A stretch of DNA of 64,000 nt from Escherichia phage BYEP01. The notes below the pieces were generated by a model. The model was not told where the DNA came from. It was given only the letters and a program-made list of their open reading frames with translations, and ran no database searches. Both the position numbers and the translations under genes were made by a program. Below, piece by piece: positions 1 to 17,300 of this stretch (positions are counted from its first letter, which is position 1; the number at the start of each line of letters is the position of its first letter). The stretch lies in the sequence record OR757453.1; one strand, 5' to 3'.

Positions 1-3000
1 TGGTAAAGCACCGATATCAGATGGTTGAGGAGGGTTACCTCCATCAAATACCTGAACAAAACTCGACCAAGAGTTTTTGGTTTTCTGCCATGTACGTGTC
101 CAACGGGTTGTACGTGCTTCTGGAGTTGTTGGATAAGTAATCCAATCTTGGTAAAGCGAATCAAGTGTGTTACCAAACTGAGTCAGTGTACCAGGAGATT
201 TAACTTCTTCGCCACGTTCTAAGTATGGAAGCCCAGTCACTTCATTAGTTTTTTCAACCATTTTAAAATAACCCGGGAACTGGTTATAAGTGGCCGAATC
301 GTTAATATCAATTGACCAGAATCCTACAGTATCAGATGTTGGTGCACGGGTATATAAATCAGATGTTTTATTACCCTGAGAACGAATTCTCGAGTTAACA
401 GTTAAGCCACCTGAGTTTATAGTAACACCTTTGGCAACGATTAAGCCTTCACCAATCGTTACTTGACCAGATGCATTGTTAATAGCTAAAGGACGTAATC
501 CATTAAATCCGCCAGTCTGATCACCAGATGTAGTGAGCATAAAATATGTGCTCACGCCATCATTCCTGATAAAGAATCCATAATTACCATTTATTGCTCT
601 AAAGGCATTTGCTGATTTACTGGTGAATTCGCCATTAGCAGTAACTGAACGACCGAATGTTGCAACGCCATTCACATTCATCAAACCGGAAGCATTAATA
701 TTTATTGGCATTACAGTACCATTAATGCTAAACGCTATATTCCCGTCTTTATTACGTTGAGAATAAAAGTGATAAGATGTTTCATCACCAACTTCAAATA
801 CAGTAGAACGTGCTGTATCTGATCCGCCACCAAACTGATTTCCCCAAACTTTGATAGCCATCGTCTGCGCTGGGTTAGTTCCAGTCTGAGGTCCTTTCTC
901 AAAAATCAGACGAGTTGCCGTTCCAGTATTAGAAATAGTTAATGTACTATTTGCCGAAACTGATCCACCAAACGTAGCAGTACTAAATGATACAAGAGGG
1001 GCACTCAGATTCATTTGTTGGGTTAAGGTTAGTGAACCATTAACCGTCTGTGCAATATCCCTACGAATGAACTGAGATGAATCTAGACCATCCAATAAAT
1101 TTGTATCAGCAGCTTTTGCTTTTAACGGCAAATAATTTGCTAATACACGGTTTAATTCATATGGTGATACCGCATAGCTATTTTTCTCATATGATTCTAA
1201 TGGCTGTGTTGAACCTACCGTATCATTACCAACGAATGTAATTGAACCAGATGAAGTTTTAACAAAACCTCTTATCGCAGTAGTAGCTGCCCAGGTAGGT
1301 TCACTCTGCACAATCCATTTTAAATTTTTTGGAGATACAGCAGTATTTGCTGACGTTCCAGTCACAGTTTCAGACTGAGTTGCAACTTTAATAACACCTT
1401 CTTGTGCTTCAGTAGATTTAGTACCTAAAAGCTTTTTAGGAGTTATTAAAACATTATCTAATTTTCCTGCAGCAGCTTCAACTTGTGTAGCTACGCGAAG
1501 TGTACCACGCTGTGTCTCATTTGCTTCAAGAATATTAAGTGTATAATGGTCCCAGAGAGTTCCTGATTCAACTAATCCAGATAGAGCAACAACAGAAGTA
1601 CGATCAGTACTATTAAATCTGGTTTTAATTTTTAATGGTGTAGAGATACGAGTATCGTCGACGCCTGCGTCGAATTCAACTTGTGTAGCAATTTCAGCTA
1701 TACCGCTTAAACTTTCAGTTGCTTTACGGTCATTTAAAGTTTTAGGAGTGACTGCACGAGTATAATCAGTTCCTGTATTAACTTCACTTTGCGTAGCAAT
1801 TTCAATTAAACCAATTCTTCCATCAGTTGATGTCTTTTTATGTAACGTTTCTGGCGTTACAACAGCATTTGCCCATCCTTGCTGACTTTGTCCAGCAATT
1901 ACTTCACTTTCAACTGCTAAAATTACTGCACCTTGCTGTGTTGGAGTAGCTTTATACTGATCCAAAGCTTTAGGTGAAACAACTAAATTATTAGTGTTTT
2001 TATTATAAACATTCGTACCATTTAATTCACGGCTAGAAGCTGGAGTAGCACCTGCAGTAGATACAAAAGTTACAATACCAGATAATGATTCAGAACCTTG
2101 ACGAGCTTGAAGCTTTTTAGGAGTGATGATTGTAGTATCATCAGTACCTGCGTTAGTTTCTTGCTGCGTCGCAATTTCAGCAACACCTCTGCGAGTTTCT
2201 GTAGCAGTTCTTTCATTCAGCTTTTTAGGAGTAATGATAAGATCATCAGCAAAAGAGAATGTGGTGTTCTGATTCACTTGAGCAGTAGTTGCTATTCTTG
2301 CAATACCTCTACGAGTTTCAGTAGCAGTACGATTAGCTAACGTTTCTGGAGTAATTGCTAATTCTTTTTGTGGAGAATTTTCTAAATCGACATTAGCTTG
2401 AGCTTGTGTAGCTAAAGCAATTACGCCTAATCTCGCTCTAGTAGAATCATTTAAAGAATCAACTCTTTCTACGGTTGGAACGTTTTGCTGTACTACCCAG
2501 TATTTTCCGTCAGAATCTTCTATATAAGCAAGCTCTAAAACTGGAACATAATTAGTTTCACCGTTAAAAACTAATTCTTGAACAGTTACCCATTCAGCTT
2601 CAGGTGGATATTCTGAACGTTTTGGGAATTGCAGCAATTGAACTGAAGAAGCAATTTTATCTTCACCGGCAGCTTTGATTTTAACTGTTTGTCCTTTTCT
2701 CATGTAATTCATGGAAATTTTAACAGTATCACCAACAGAAATATTAGTTGGAAGCTTAAGCTCAATTGTCTGAGCTGTTCCGTTATTCGCACCAAATACC
2801 ATAACTTCTTCATTTGGACGAATATTTGAATTAGTTGTTATAATACGTAAACGTGCTTTATTATCCCCGTCAAACAATCTCCACAATTTTTCATTATCAT
2901 CAAACATCAAGAAACCGTCAATCGTTGTACGGCCTTCAATGGAATGAGTTCCAACTTCTTGTATTGAAGTCGTTTCATCGTATGTAGTAACAATTGTATG

Positions 3001-9299: not shown

Positions 9300-9847
9300 T
9301 GAAACAATACCAATTTTTAATTAAAGATATCCTGGAAAATGGCTATGAAACTGATGATCGAACAGGCACAGGAACAATTGCTCTGTTCGGTACTAAATTA
9401 CGCTGGGATTTAACTAAAGGTTTTCCTGCAGTAACGACTAAGAAGCTCGCCTGGAAAGCTTGTATTGCTGAGCTCCTTTGGTTTTTATCAGGAAGTACTA
9501 ACGTAAATGATTTACGATTAATTCAGCATAATTCATTAATTCAAGGTAAAACAGTCTGGGATGAAAATTACGAAAACCAAGCAAAAGATTTAGGATATCA
9601 TAGTGGTGAACTTGGTCCAATTTATGGAAAACAATGGCGTGATTTTGGTGGTGTAGATCAAATTGTAGAAGTTATTGATCGTATTAAAAAACTACCAAAT
9701 GATAGGCGTCAAATCGTTTCAGCATGGAATCCAGCTGAACTTAAATATATGGCATTACCGCCCTGTCATATGTTCTATCAGTTTAATGTGCGTAATGGTT
9801 ATCTTGACCTTCAGTGGTATCAACGATCAGTAGATGTTTTCTTGGGT
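9299..9847 (+). CDS. td: thymidylate synthase, exon 1 (183 codons)
   Basis: Track ORF 9287..9850 starts at TTG; ATG 9299 gives MKQYQFLIKDILENGYETDDRTGTGTIALFG...QRSVDVFLG, recognised as T4 Td exon 1; TAA at 9848-9850 is the first intron triplet. Confidence 0.93.
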
Positions 9848-10110
9848 TAATTGAGGCCTGAGTATAAGGTGACTTATACTTGTAATCTATCTAAACGGGG
9901 GACCTCTCTAGTAGACAATCCCGTGCTAAATGTGTAGGACTTTGGTTCTACCTAAATGCCTAACGACTATCCCTTTAGGGAGTAGGGTCAAGTGACTCGA
10001 AACGATAGACATCTTGCTTCATCAAGATGGAGATATAGTCTGATCTGTATGGTGACATGCAGCTGGATATAATTCCGGGATAAGATTAACGACCTTATCT
10101 GAACATAATG
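9848..10110 (+). ncRNA. group I self-splicing intron in td, ORF-less (263 nt; no I-TevI reading frame)
   Basis: Starts TAATTGAGGCCTGAGTATAAGGTGAC..., ends ...GAACATAATG; contains GGGTCAAGTGACTCGAAACGATAGAC and GAGATATAGTCTG core elements recalled from the T4 td intron; flanking exons join into one TS frame. Confidence 0.85.
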
Positions 10111-10709: not shown

Positions 10710-10989
10710 ATATAAATCCGACTTTGATGTTAATATTCACCGTGGTACATTTTGGGGAAATTACGTCGGTAAAGATGCTGGCAGCCGGGAGGCTGCCATT
10801 GAATTATTCAAAAAAGATTTTATACGTCGAATTAAATCCGGAGAAATAACTAAAGCACATTTAGAGCCTTTACGTGGAATGAGGCTAGGATGCACATGTA
10901 AACCAAAGCCGTGTCATGGTGATATAATAGCTCATATAGTTAACCGATTGTTTAAAGACGATTTTCAAGTTGAGGACTTATGCAATTAA
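10663..10989 (+). CDS. hypothetical protein (108 aa; nrdA.1-position) with DUF4326-like CxC...CHGD motif
   Basis: ...[26 protein letters not shown]...[19 protein letters not shown]; overlaps previous ORF by 47 nt and nrdA start by 10 nt. Confidence 0.6.
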
Positions 10990-12413
10990 TTAATGTTATC
11001 AAAAGTAGTGGTGTTTCTCAGAGCTTTGACCCACAAAAAATTATTAAAGTTTTATCTTGGGCAGCTGAAGGAACATCTGTAGATCCTTATGAATTATATG
11101 AAAATATTAAATCATATCTCCGTGATGGAATGACCACTGATGACATTCAGACTATTGTCATTAAGGCTGCTGCGAATTCTATTTCGGTTGAAGAGCCTGA
11201 TTATCAATATGTAGCTGCACGCTGTTTAATGTTTGCTCTTCGTAAGCATGTTTACGGGCAATATGAACCACGTTCATTTATTGACCATATTTCTTACTGC
11301 GTAAATGAAGGTAAATATGACCCTGAATTGTTGTCAAAATATTCAGCAGAAGAAATTACATTTTTAGAATCAAAAATTAAGCACGAGCGGGATATGGAAT
11401 TTACTTATTCCGGGGCGATGCAATTAAAAGAAAAATATCTAGTTAAAGATAAAACCACTGGTCAAATTTATGAAACTCCACAGTTTGCATTTATGGCTAT
11501 TGGAATGGCACTGCATCAAGATGAACCTGTTGATAGATTAAAACATGTCATTCGTTTTTATGAAGCAGTATCTACTCGACAGATTTCATTGCCAACTCCT
11601 ATTATGGCTGGTTGTCGTACTCCAACTCGACAGTTTAGTTCATGCGTTGTTATTGAAGCAGGTGATTCGCTGAAGTCTATCAATAAGGCTTCTGCTTCAA
11701 TTGTTGAGTATATTTCTAAACGAGCTGGAATTGGCATTAACGTTGGTATGATTCGTGCCGAAGGTTCTAAGATTAGCACAGGTGAAGTGCGTCATACTGG
11801 TGTTATTCCTTTTTGGAAACATTTTCAGACTGCAGTTAAATCATGCTCACAGGGTGGAATTCGTGGCGGCGCTGCTACTGCTTATTATCCTATTTGGCAT
11901 TTGGAAGTTGAAAATCTTCTCGTTTTGAAAAATAACAAAGGCGTAGAAGAAAACCGTATTCGTCATATGGATTATGGCGTCCAGCTGAATGATTTGATGA
12001 TGGAACGTTTTGGAAAGAACGACTACATTACTTTGTTCAGTCCACATGAAATGGGTGGTGAGCTTTATTATTCTTATTTTAAAGACCAAGACCGTTTCCG
12101 TGAATTATATGAAGCCGCAGAAAAAGACCCTAATATTCGTAAAAAGCGTATTAAAGCCCGTGAACTGTTTGAATTGCTCATGACTGAACGATCAGGAACA
12201 GCAAGGATTTATGTACAGTTCATAGATAATACGAATAACTATACTCCGTTTATTCGTGAAAAGGCACCTATTCGTCAGAGCAACTTGTGTTGTGAAATTG
12301 CTATTCCAACAAATGATGTGAATAGTCAACAAACCCGTTTAATCAAAATTAAGAAGTCGGATGTAGCTAAGTTTTATGAAGCTAATCCTGGCGGTATAAT
12401 TCAAAGCAAATAA
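10980..12413 (+). CDS. nrdA: ribonucleotide reductase large subunit NrdA, N-terminal fragment (477 aa; about 449 NrdA residues plus 28-aa unrelated tail)
   Basis: [31 protein letters not shown]...RQSNLCCEIAIPTNDVNS then QQTRLIKIKKSDVAKFYEANPGGIIQSK-stop; class I RNR alpha homology up to the NLCxEI active-site motif. Confidence 0.9.
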   Translation: MQLINVIKSSGVSQSFDPQKIIKVLSWAAEGTSVDPYELYENIKSYLRDGMTTDDIQTIVIKAAANSISVEEPDYQYVAARCLMFALRKHVYGQYEPRSFIDHISYCVNEGKYDPELLSKYSAEEITFLESKIKHERDMEFTYSGAMQLKEKYLVKDKTTGQIYETPQFAFMAIGMALHQDEPVDRLKHVIRFYEAVSTRQISLPTPIMAGCRTPTRQFSSCVVIEAGDSLKSINKASASIVEYISKRAGIGINVGMIRAEGSKISTGEVRHTGVIPFWKHFQTAVKSCSQGGIRGGAATAYYPIWHLEVENLLVLKNNKGVEENRIRHMDYGVQLNDLMMERFGKNDYITLFSPHEMGGELYYSYFKDQDRFRELYEAAEKDPNIRKKRIKARELFELLMTERSGTARIYVQFIDNTNNYTPFIREKAPIRQSNLCCEIAIPTNDVNSQQTRLIKIKKSDVAKFYEANPGGIIQSK

Positions 12414-12461: not shown

Positions 12462-13172
12462 ATGGATTATTCTAAAATTTACAATAACCTTATTTCTAAA
12501 GCTAAGAATAGAAAATTAGATTGCTATACCGAATCACACCATATTATACCTCTGTGTATTGGCGGTTCTGATACAAAAGAAAACCTGGTAGATTTGACAC
12601 CAGAAGAGCATTACATAGCTCATCAATTATTAGTAAAGATATATCCAGATAATCATAAATTGATATTTGCCGCTAATATGATGTGTGTTTATTCTGAAGA
12701 TAATATTGAACGAAAGAACACCAATAAACGTCATGGGTGGCTTAGAAGAAAATTGGCTATTTCTGTATCTGAAAATAATAAAGGCAAACCGGCTTGGAAC
12801 AAAGGTATTCCTATGTCTCCAGAAGTTAAATCTCGACTTCAAACATCTTGGGTGTTTACATTTCCGGATGGTCATGAGGAAATTCATCGAGGTCTTAACG
12901 AATTTTGTAAAGAGCATAATTTAAATGCATCTGCGATGTCAGCCGTTTGTAAAGGTAAACGGGCGCATCACAAAGGATTTAAGTGTAAGAAATTGGATAA
13001 GATTTCAGAGCTTGATAATTTAGTTTTCGTCAGTAAACCTCATCCAAAGGGATTAAAACCCCATAACTTAATTGCTGTAAAAATAAACGGTATAGAATAT
13101 CAATCAATACATCGAGCATCTAAAGCTTTAGGAATTACTAGAAAAAAGGTAGAAGAATTAAATGAATATTGA
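12462..13172 (+). CDS. HNH homing endonuclease (Mob-like, 236 aa) inserted within nrdA
   Basis: GAGGA RBS then ATG; MDYSKIYNNLISKAKNRKLDCYTESHHIIPLCIGGSDTKENLVDLTPEEHYIAHQLL = HNH motif; paralogous to ORFs 39813..40505 and 58945..59757. Confidence 0.85.
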   Translation: MDYSKIYNNLISKAKNRKLDCYTESHHIIPLCIGGSDTKENLVDLTPEEHYIAHQLLVKIYPDNHKLIFAANMMCVYSEDNIERKNTNKRHGWLRRKLAISVSENNKGKPAWNKGIPMSPEVKSRLQTSWVFTFPDGHEEIHRGLNEFCKEHNLNASAMSAVCKGKRAHHKGFKCKKLDKISELDNLVFVSKPHPKGLKPHNLIAVKINGIEYQSIHRASKALGITRKKVEELNEY

Positions 13173-14151
13173 TTATGAATTTGTAGATGAATTTTACGAA
13201 GATGATGAGTATACTACAATAGAAGTTATTGAAAACAGGGGAGAAGTGGGGCTTTGTACCCTTAGCGCATTTGTGTTGGATAACTTCGATTGGCAAGACC
13301 AAGACAAAATTAATGAATTAGCAGAAGTTCAAGTTCGTGCTCTTGATAATCTTTTGGACTACCAAGGATATCCAGTTCCTGAAGCAGAAAAAGCTAAAAA
13401 GCGTCGAAACCTTGGCGTAGGTGTTACTAACTATGCAGCTTGGCTGGCAAGTAACTTTGCTTCTTATGAAGATGCTAACGATTTAACACATGAACTATTT
13501 GAGAGATTGCAGTATGGACTCATTAAAGCATCCATTAAGCTCGCCAAAGAAAAAGGACCTTGCGAATATTATTCAGACACTCGTTGGTCTCGAGGCGAAT
13601 TACCTATCGACTGGTACAATAAAAAGATTGACCAAATCGCAGCTCCAAAATACGTTTGTGATTGGGACGAACTTCGATCTGAACTCAAACAGCATGGAAT
13701 TCGAAATTCTACTTTATCCGCGTTGATGCCGTGTGAATCATCCAGTCAGGTATCTAACAGTACAAACGGTATCGAGCCTCCACGTGGACCAGTCTCTGTT
13801 AAAGAATCAAAAGAGGGTTCCTTTAATCAAGTCGTGCCCAATATTGAGCATAACATAGACCTCTATGATTATACGTGGAAATTAGCTAAGAAAGGTAATA
13901 AACCTTATCTTACGCAGGTAGCTATTATGCTGAAATGGGTATGTCAATCAGCTTCAGCGAATACATATTATGACCCGCAGATTTTTCCAAAAGGAAAGGT
14001 TCCAATGTCTGTAATGATTGATGACATGCTATACGGATGGTATTATGGCATTAAAAACTTCTATTATCATAATACCCGTGATGGTTCTGGTACTGATGAT
14101 TATGAAATAGAAACTCCCAAAGCTGAAGATTGTTCATCCTGTAAATTATGA
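13162..14151 (+). CDS. nrdA: ribonucleotide reductase large subunit NrdA, C-terminal fragment (329 aa; 26-aa novel leader then NrdA from GEVGLCTLSAF)
   Basis: MNIDYEFVDEFYEDDEYTTIEVIENR-GEVGLCTLSAFVLDNFDW...NSTLSALMPCESSSQVSNSTNGIEPPRG...YYHNTRDGSG...CSSCKL matches class I RNR alpha C-terminal half; ATG lies within last codons of the HNH ORF. Confidence 0.9.
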   Translation: MNIDYEFVDEFYEDDEYTTIEVIENRGEVGLCTLSAFVLDNFDWQDQDKINELAEVQVRALDNLLDYQGYPVPEAEKAKKRRNLGVGVTNYAAWLASNFASYEDANDLTHELFERLQYGLIKASIKLAKEKGPCEYYSDTRWSRGELPIDWYNKKIDQIAAPKYVCDWDELRSELKQHGIRNSTLSALMPCESSSQVSNSTNGIEPPRGPVSVKESKEGSFNQVVPNIEHNIDLYDYTWKLAKKGNKPYLTQVAIMLKWVCQSASANTYYDPQIFPKGKVPMSVMIDDMLYGWYYGIKNFYYHNTRDGSGTDDYEIETPKAEDCSSCKL

Positions 14152-14202
14152 TATAATTTGACTCATGGACGAGTCACCAACTATTAACTAAGTGGAAAAT
14201 TT

Positions 14203-14878
14203 ATGAGCACAGTTTTTAATACAAATCCAGTTGATGTTTTAACAGAACCTATGTTCTTCGGTTCAGGTCTTGGAATTGCACGTTATGATATTCAACGACA
14301 TAAGGTATTTGAAGAACTTATTGAACGTTCGCTCTCGTTTTTCTGGCGGCCTGAAGAAGTAAACTTAATGATGGATGCTGCACAATTTAACAAGCTCCCA
14401 GAACACCAAAAATCTATATTTATCAATAACTTAAAATACCAGTCATTGTTAGACTCCATCCAGGGGCGTGCACCATCTGCGGTACTTATGCCATTGCTTT
14501 CAGATCCAAGCCTTGATACATGGGTAGCAACATGGACTTTTAGCGAAACTATTCACAGTCGTTCATATACCCATATCATGCGTAACTTGTTCAATGACCC
14601 TGCTAAGGTATTTGATGAGATTGTACTAGATGAAGCTATCATGAAACGTGCTGAATCTATCGGTCGCTATTATGATGATGTTCTGACTAAAACCCGTGAA
14701 TGGGAAAATGCTAAAGAATTTACAGAACTAGCTAAAGAATCTCCTGATGCTGTTTTTCGTTTAAATCGAGCTATTAAACAAGAAGCCGAAGCTAAACGTG
14801 CTTTAATGAAATCTCTTTACCTCTGTTTGCACGTTATTAATGCCTTAGAAGCTATTCGTTTTTATGTATCTTTTGCGT
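14203..14878 (+). CDS. nrdB: ribonucleotide reductase small subunit NrdB, exon 1
   Basis: MSTVFNTNPVDVLTEPMFFGSGLGIARYDIQRHKVFEELIERSLSFFWRPEEV...ALEAIRFYVSFA; frame interrupted by TAA at 14878-14880 at the intron boundary. Confidence 0.9.
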
Positions 14879-15182
14879 AAAATGCGCCTTTAAACGGTAA
14901 CGTTTATCGAAAACTCCTTTAATTGCTGGAAAGTCCTTTATAGGAAAACTAGCAGCCAAGGTTTTGCTTGCACCTTTAATTAGCATAATATAAATGATTA
15001 TACTTTTAAGAGGATGCACAATTGCAAAGCAAGGTTCAACGACTAGTCTTCGGACGTAGGGTCAAGCGACTCGAAATGGGGAGAATCCCTCTGGGATTGT
15101 GATATAGTCTGGTCTGCATAGTAATATGTAGCAGTTCATAAGAGAACGGGTTGAGAATTAGCGAGCTCAATCGAACATAACG
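14879..15182 (+). ncRNA. group I self-splicing intron in nrdB, ORF-less (about 304 nt; no I-TevIII remnant)
   Basis: Contains AGGGTCAAGCGACTCGAAA and GATATAGTCTG core elements shared with the td intron; ends in G; t(14878)+gt(15183-15184) reconstitutes a Cys codon giving FYVSFA-C-TFNFHKNMEIMEGNAK; exact boundaries inferred. Confidence 0.75.
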
Positions 15183-15685
15183 GTACCTTTAACTTCCATA
15201 AGAACATGGAAATCATGGAAGGTAATGCCAAGATTATGAAGTTCATTGCACGTGATGAGCAGCTTCACCTTAAAGGCACCCAATATATTATTCGTCAACT
15301 TCAATCCGGTACTGATGGCGATGAATGGGTTAAAATTGCTCAAGAGTGTGAACAAGAAGCAGTTGATATTTTCATGGAAGTTAACCGCCAAGAAAAAGAC
15401 TGGGCAGTTCATTTATTTAAAGATGGCGATGTTCCTGGATTAAATACAAATAGCATGTGGAGCTTTATTGATTACTTAACTGTATCTCGTATGAAACAGT
15501 GCGGTCTTCCATGCCCAATTACCGATGCTCCGGTTAAACATCCGTATCCTTGGATTCGTGAATACCTTAATTCTGATAATGTTCAATCCGCGCCACAAGA
15601 AGTAGAACTGTCATCTTACCTTGTTGCACAGATTGATAATGATGTTGATGATAAAGTTATGATGAGTTTTAAAAAATACTTTTAA
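15183..15685 (+). CDS. nrdB: ribonucleotide reductase small subunit NrdB, exon 2
   Basis: ...TFNFHKNMEIMEGNAKIMKFIARDEQLHLKGTQYII...SAPQEVELSSYLVAQIDNDVDDKVMMSFKKYF; RNR beta C-terminal half. Confidence 0.9.
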
Positions 15686-15690
15686 GGAGT

Positions 15691-15712
15691 GGGCCGCAAG
15701 GCCCATTTTATT
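15691..15712 (+). terminator. hairpin GGGCC-gcaa-GGCCC followed by ATTTTATT; terminator after nrdB, and/or structure placing the denA SD near its ATG
   Basis: Inverted repeat and U-rich tail read in sequence; lies between AAGGAG (15684-15689) and denA ATG (15713). Confidence 0.5.

Positions 15713-17300
<1,588 letters not shown>

Follow-up and report, generated by a model that had tools for sequence, protein, structure and literature searches.

According to a 2010 review (PMC2993671), each of the three T-even introns codes for an endonuclease of its own. The nrdB introns of T4 and RB3 are classics, and that of RB3 encodes active I-TevIII (Eddy & Gold 1991; Robbins et al. 2007, PMC1865063). The T-even intron endonucleases are controlled at the ribosome-binding site, which is masked but becomes accessible on late transcripts (PMC2988022). 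In T4, the nrdB intron with its defunct endonuclease is carried into intron-less genomes by the adjacent free-standing endonuclease MobE, which in T4 × T2 crosses nicks within nrdB (PMC2790892). The forms of this intron in the records compared differ in what is left of I-TevIII: it is intact in RB3 (intron of 1091 nt), defunct through an internal deletion in T4 (598 nt, close to the roughly 600 nt given in the original prediction for this locus) and interrupted by a different internal deletion in SG1 (420 nt). Self-splicing of the T4 nrdB intron is textbook knowledge.

Here we describe a shorter form from Escherichia phage BYEP01, found in a 64,000-nt stretch of record OR757453.1 (hereafter the window, to which all coordinates refer; nrdB and its intron features lie on the plus strand). 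In the window, nrdB is interrupted at the same site by a 304-nt group I intron without a homing-endonuclease ORF (14879..15182). The evidence assembled below makes it very probable that this is a self-splicing intron of subgroup IA type, that arose from the RB3 type through loss of 785 bp between two ACAATTG repeats and is incapable of homing on its own. A full-text literature search, outside which the survey of Sandegren & Sjöberg (2004) lay, did not turn up any account of an nrdB intron lacking an endonuclease.

Intron boundaries and the joined nrdB frame

The region is T4-like (Tequatrovirus-type), with the gene order td–nrdA–nrdB–denA–rnlA. An ATG at 14203 opens an ORF (14203..14880) whose product comprises the first 225 residues of the ribonucleotide reductase small subunit (Pfam Ribonuc_red_sm), ending in ...AIRFYVSFA before a TAA at 14878-14880; the frame picks up again as (C)TFNFHKNMEIMEGNAK from 15183. 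The original prediction had reported both ends of the frame in this form and had placed between them an ORF-less group I intron of about 304 nt, ending in G and with splice sites deduced from frame and conservation. The gap measures exactly 304 nt, its last base is G15182, and no ORF of at least 30 aa was found on the plus strand within 14879..15182.

Joining T14878 to G15183 yields a 1179-nt frame encoding a 392-aa NrdB with one Ribonuc_red_sm domain. Exon 1 (14203..14878) supplies 225 codons and the T of a cysteine codon, and exon 2 (15183..15685), which is colinear with Escherichia coli R2, runs from the GT of that codon to a TAA stop. The codon formed by T14878 and GT15183-15184 is TGT, the conserved cysteine that had been expected, and it aligns with the cysteine of R2 in ...FYVSFACSF.... 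The spliced protein aligned with E. coli R2 over residues 3-373 (E = 3e-130) with the junction undisturbed, ...AIRFYVSFAC|TFNF... in NrdB corresponding to ...AIRFYVSFACSFAF... in R2.

To place the splice sites, we used a synthetic junction query composed of 70 nt of exon 1 and 70 nt of exon 2. This query matched uninterrupted nrdB in one piece, at 139/140 positions, in many intron-less T4-like phages. No other pair of boundaries gives the intron-less nrdB sequence, and the intron is therefore 14879..15182 (304 nt), with a terminal guanosine (omega-G) at 15182 on the 3' splice site. The splice sites originally proposed are thus the sole pair that matches both intron-less nrdB and colinear R2, and the predicted ligated junction reads ...TTTGCGT|GTACCTTT.... 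The insertion point follows the first base of the cysteine codon (...FYVSFA|C...), and its flanks and the intron ends are shared with T4, RB3, SG1 and PD112, a phage that carries an I-TevIII-free nrdB intron of the same 304 nt. Comparison with the T4 and RB3 introns, one of the checks suggested with the prediction, found insertion site and ends identical.

The 70-nt exon flanks are 100% identical between the window and PD112. We considered this identity as a co-conversion tract and rejected that reading because the flanks are equally conserved in intron-less alleles (139/140). A scan of 14100..15800 for sigma-70 promoters and terminators returned nothing exceeding shuffled expectation.

Profile match and structure model of the ribozyme

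Another suggested check, an Rfam scan, matched the group I intron family RF00028 (Intron_gpI) at 14862..15131 over the full model (positions 1-253), with a score of 68.7 bits (E = 2.6e-15) against a curated gathering score of 50 bits. This match is far beyond chance. The two motifs quoted from the gap in the prediction were located as well, AGGGTCAAGCGACTCGAAA starting at 15058 and TGATATAGTCTGG at 15100.

We wrote a P1–P9.2 secondary structure model from the window sequence. It incorporates the P3/P7 pseudoknot as well as P7.1 and P7.2, the hairpins typical of subgroup IA, and all 85 modelled pairs form in the window. In P1 (14875..14887), exon GCGU and the first intron base, A1, pair with UGCGC, the internal guide sequence; this 5-bp helix (GCGUA/UGCGC) marks the 5' splice site with a U14878·G14884 wobble. 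It is followed by the P2 hairpin with its GUAA loop (14891..14906), the 5' strand of P3 (14914..14919, partner 15078..15083), the P4-P5 domain (14924..14954) and the 5' strand of P6/P6a (14956..14967, partner 15029..15034), the last present in the minimum free energy (MFE) fold, the model and the alignment. The 5' strand of P7, GACUA (15041..15045), pairs with UAGUC (15105..15109), a 3' strand that lies inside the conserved GAUAUAGUCU motif and is given by both the Rfam match and the model. From general knowledge of group I introns, the G15041-C15109 pair is presumably the guanosine-binding site. P7 is separated from the 3' strand of P3 (15078..15083; Rfam match and model) by two extra peripheral hairpins, P7.1 with a UUCG loop (15046..15055, entered in the model as explicit pairs) and P7.2 (15059..15072); on the strength of what is known of T4 introns, we take the intron to be IA2-like. 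The P8 hairpin (15085..15097) was recovered by the Rfam match, MFE fold, model and alignment alike. Downstream of it come the P9 hairpin, again with a GUAA loop (15114..15131), and the 3' peripheral hairpins P9.1 (15134..15147) and P9.2 (15149..15172), both found in the MFE fold and in the model.

The MFE fold independently gives P1, P2, P4/P5, P6a-c, P7.2, P8, P9, P9.1 and P9.2, with a modest z-score of -1.67. For covariation, we aligned eight closely related variants from which ORF segments had been taken out. Paired bases filled 99.4% of alignment cells compared with 36-42% when the 3' partners were slid by 1-3 columns, a contrast that is inflated because the model was derived from the window sequence. 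Compensatory changes occurred in eight pairs, namely three of the six in P2, one in P5 with three standard pair types (UA/AU/GC), one each in P7.2 and P9 (A-U to G-C) and two in P9.2, and in none of the slid controls; compared with T4, P9 additionally has a G·U pair replaced by G-C. None of 500 shuffles equalled the observed values for pairing and compensation. P1, P3, P4, P6, P7, P7.1 and P9.1 are invariant in the eight sequences, which makes covariation uninformative for these helices. Within the modelled P3-P8 core, compensatory changes back P5 and P7.2, and the invariant P3, P4, P6 and P7, including the P3/P7 pseudoknot, are compatible with the alignment.

A second ORF-less group I intron, 263 nt long, interrupts the thymidylate synthase gene td elsewhere in the window (9848..10110; Rfam score 64.1 bits over 9838..10062), between an exon 1 that ends in ...CTTGGGT and an exon 2 that starts with CTTCCATTT. 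Both introns are of subgroup IA type without an endonuclease ORF, and they have the P7.2 and P7 3' motifs in common: as originally noted, near-identical copies of the two motifs quoted from nrdB occur in the td intron match. They differ in host gene and in ribozyme sequence. The T4 td intron is about 1 kb long and carries I-TevI, and the former tenant of the td intron would presumably have been this GIY-YIG enzyme, not the HNH endonuclease I-TevIII. Phages PD112 and CE1 also match the td region in one piece; together with their ORF-less nrdB introns, this indicates that the same phages lack the endonuclease genes of both introns.

Relation to the RB3, T4 and SG1 introns

In RB3, the 269-aa HNH endonuclease I-TevIII is encoded from a TTG start at intron positions 146-955 (810 nt), within the P6 extension. 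The window intron sits at the same site of the same gene and has a like ribozyme. Apart from a single substitution (14984) and a 2-nt indel, it departs from the RB3 intron only by a 785-nt deletion, through which 785 of the 810 nt of the endonuclease ORF are gone. Relative to T4 there are 7 substitutions over 304 shared positions, and the ribozyme core is 97-100% identical to those of T4 and RB3.

The deletion is bounded in RB3 by two 7-bp direct repeats, ACAATTG. The upstream copy includes the TTG start of I-TevIII and the downstream copy immediately precedes the 3' strand of P6a, such that the deletion takes all I-TevIII sequence except 25 nt that double as ribozyme strands. The window retains a single copy as the deletion junction (15018..15024), which includes the former start codon (15022..15024). 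From this arrangement we infer that the deletion arose by slippage or microhomology recombination. The T4 and window introns share site and fold, and both are deletion derivatives of an RB3-type intron. In T4, however, 491 nt were lost inside the ORF at a 2-nt microhomology, leaving a truncated frame, whereas the deletion in the window is independent and larger and removes the ORF from the start codon on. The T4 and SG1 deletions are likewise separate events.

The intron had been called a minimal version of its T4 and RB3 counterparts. This description holds in that it equals the RB3 intron minus 785/810 nt of I-TevIII between the ACAATTG repeats, but it does not extend to the smallest possible ribozyme, because the P6 extension still holds some 50 nt of the endonuclease's vestigial control region. 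This P6b/c segment (14969..15018) was identified by alignment with RB3 and T4 and forms a hairpin in the MFE fold, where it is predicted to mask a Shine-Dalgarno sequence, AAGAGG (15008..15013). It also holds a decayed late-promoter remnant, TATAAATG at 14989..14996, in place of TATAAATA in RB3 and T4. Hairpin, Shine-Dalgarno sequence and promoter fit the published control logic of I-TevIII. Length variation among short forms is confined to this relic (alignment columns 115-126), as would be expected of sequence that is no longer needed.

The retention of the hairpin, the Shine-Dalgarno sequence, the TTG start and the decayed promoter argues that the short form is derived, not ancestral. The converse would be that the 304-nt form predates I-TevIII and that the two ACAATTG copies in RB3 are the footprint of its insertion. 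An ORF flanked by 7-bp direct repeats in RB3, with one copy in the short form, is indeed the pattern of an empty site, and intron backbones that carry the short form are divergent, one of them belonging to a phage of another genus. Yet the signals that the short form keeps, including a late-promoter-like TATAAAT(G/A) just upstream of the junction, have endonuclease expression as their sole known role (PMC2988022) and are unexpected at an empty site. Moreover, the window intron is one substitution away from that of RB3, which speaks for a recent split, and the promoter stretch has suffered small deletions in 3/5 short forms, fitting a relic. We therefore regard an ancestral short form as very improbable and favour its derivation by deletion.

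The old I-TevIII TTG now opens a 26-codon ORF (LQSKVQRLVFGRRVKRLEMGRIPLGL followed by a stop, 15022..15102), because the deletion shifts the frame. This ORF crosses P6a, P7, P7.1, P7.2, the 3' strand of P3 and P8, reaching deeper into the core than the end of the native ORF. If translated, it could disturb ribozyme folding; the kept hairpin, however, is predicted to go on masking its Shine-Dalgarno sequence.

Predicted splicing, distribution and mobility of the short allele

Near-identity to the T4 intron, intact exons and selection on the joined frame lead us to infer that nrdB is spliced in these phages. In the proposed course of events, the intron in nrdB pre-mRNA would adopt the P1-P9.2 ribozyme fold. 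Attack by an external guanosine after U14878, held in P1 as a U·G pair, would free the 3'-OH of exon 1, which would then attack after the terminal G15182. Joining of the exons would restore the TGT cysteine codon and the 392-aa NrdB. The 785-bp deletion from an RB3-type intron would have left promoter, hairpin, Shine-Dalgarno sequence and start codon behind as a relic. The intron may persist because only base-perfect excision would be tolerated, and its spread would be limited to passive recombination or to transfer in trans through a neighbouring free-standing endonuclease.

Spliced nrdB is intact at 392 codons in all four carriers compared (the window, PD112, SP21535 and CJY920). Their nrdB codon differences comprise 38-59 synonymous versus 6-18 non-synonymous changes (3-7 to 1), an excess that indicates selection on spliced NrdB. 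These data bear on the alternative that the intron has lost splicing and that nrdB is here an interrupted, dispensable pseudogene. Several points lend it some plausibility: splicing is read from sequence, the T4 nrd genes are non-essential in laboratory hosts, a frameshifted residual mini-ORF runs across the ribozyme core, and nrdB is 5'-truncated in the record of one carrier, DCP80. Against it stand the 85/85 intact modelled pairs and the near-identity of the core to those of T4 and RB3, two nrdB exons that are open and colinear with R2, and the mostly synonymous exon differences among the four carriers. On balance, loss of splicing is very unlikely, and a functional, spliced nrdB is the reading we retain.

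We searched a phage collection of 50,697 records, in which nrdB matched 873 records and the P6 region of the intron 126. The junction was crossed in one piece in 6 records from five phages (PD112 with two records, CE1, SP21535, CJY920 and DCP80). All five have the identical GGATGC-ACAATTG-CAAAG junction, with intron lengths of 300 nt in SP21535 and 309 nt in both CJY920 and DCP80, the latter of genus Gaprivervirus. An assembly artefact, in which the intron collapsed at the repeated ACAATTG, would explain why the deletion end-points fall within a direct repeat but has a negligible chance of being correct, given that a 7-bp repeat is far below the length that misleads an assembler and that the same junction recurs in five independently sequenced phages. 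None of the short-form records whose annotation was inspected has an intron annotated; in PD112, the gene appears as 'NrdB, partial' and a second small-subunit CDS.

The window intron differs by 1 substitution each from those of RB3, PD112 and SP21535. Compared with DCP80, the intron is 91% identical and exon 2 only 75%; the corresponding exon 1 value of 59.5% is unreliable because the DCP80 record is without most of that exon. In this record (PQ671644.1, a 140,978-bp 'complete genome'; 176..1409), exon 1 is reduced to about 190-205 nt and adjoins an oppositely oriented DNA primase gene, with intron and exon 2 intact, which reflects either a genome rearrangement or a misassembly. The ORF-less intron of CJY920 (PQ349265.1, 1410..1718) is a chimera: the 13 positions at which it departs from the window are all 5' of the deletion junction, where it agrees with P2 and P5 of the SG1/DCP80 type, and in the 3' half it does not differ from the window or RB3. 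This pattern is evidence either that the intron has recombined internally or that the deletion occurred independently on a different backbone.

The identical junction is therefore found on three backbones (RB3-like, the CJY920 chimera and DCP80), and these differences imply either repeated origins of the short allele at the repeat or a single origin followed by recombination and movement between phages. A broader proposal, that ACAATTG excision is a recurrent hotspot that strips I-TevIII independently in several lineages and that the intron then spreads, even between genera, by travelling with nearby free-standing endonucleases, for example the MobE-like gene within nrdA, is tentative and in our estimate rather doubtful. 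Among IMG/VR viral contigs, the exact 21-nt junction had 0 matches, and 6 metagenome-contig matches to a 19-nt version were dismissed as chance since similarity ends at 19-21 nt. Accordingly, the short allele is so far confined to genomes of cultured phages. Phage U5, considered as a possible carrier of an ORF-less nrdB intron, was also rejected: its record matches in two separate places, like ORF-containing introns, and a review mention of a U5 I-TevIII hairpin further counters that reading.

Without I-TevIII, the intron is unable to home by itself. The nrdA–nrdB gap of the window (14152..14202) is 51 nt long and contains no gene; T4 mobE and an endonuclease-annotated CDS of SG1 ('Hef-like'), which are sited between nrdA and nrdB in those phages, are absent from it. 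A MobE-family HNH homing-endonuclease gene (phrog_655) is found instead inside nrdA, at 12462..13172, with 46% identity to T4 MobE over 127 residues (E = 1e-29). It separates a 477-aa nrdA ORF with the ATP-cone, the all-alpha domain and the first barrel half (10980..12413) from a 329-aa ORF with the second barrel half (13162..14151). No group I intron was detected at the nrdA split. This organization, which about 32 deposited records share (for example fPS-2, vB_EcoM_112 and FL33), is similar to the 'genes-in-pieces' nrdA known from Aeromonas phage Aeh1.

As with T4 MobE and nrdB, an endonuclease-less intron thus lies near a free-standing HNH homing-endonuclease gene, but that gene is within nrdA, about 1.7 kb upstream, and not between nrdA and nrdB. 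By analogy with T4, trans-mobilization of the nrdB intron by the MobE-like gene is possible. In PD112, which carries the same intron, nrdA is unsplit and the stretch examined contains no MobE-like gene. Within nrdB, exon 1 (compared over 14321..14778) is much more divergent than exon 2 or the intron, being 86-89% identical to PD112, RB3, SP21535 and CJY920 against about 98% for exon 2, the exon 1 substitutions clustering at 14385..14604.

Overall, the short nrdB intron is an unannotated new allele of a textbook element and represents an expected stage in the cycle of homing-endonuclease gain, decay and loss. Set against the 2010 statement on T-even introns (PMC2993671), endonuclease-free alleles of nrdB and td amount to a small update; no new mechanism is opened and the mechanistic interest is low. 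The practical consequence concerns annotation, as gene callers break nrdB into two 'partial' genes in deposited relatives such as PD112, and the correct product is one 392-aa protein. Together with RB3 (intact) and T4 and SG1 (two partial deletions), the window forms a natural decay series of one intron at one site, in which the endonuclease gene can go completely with the ribozyme kept intact.
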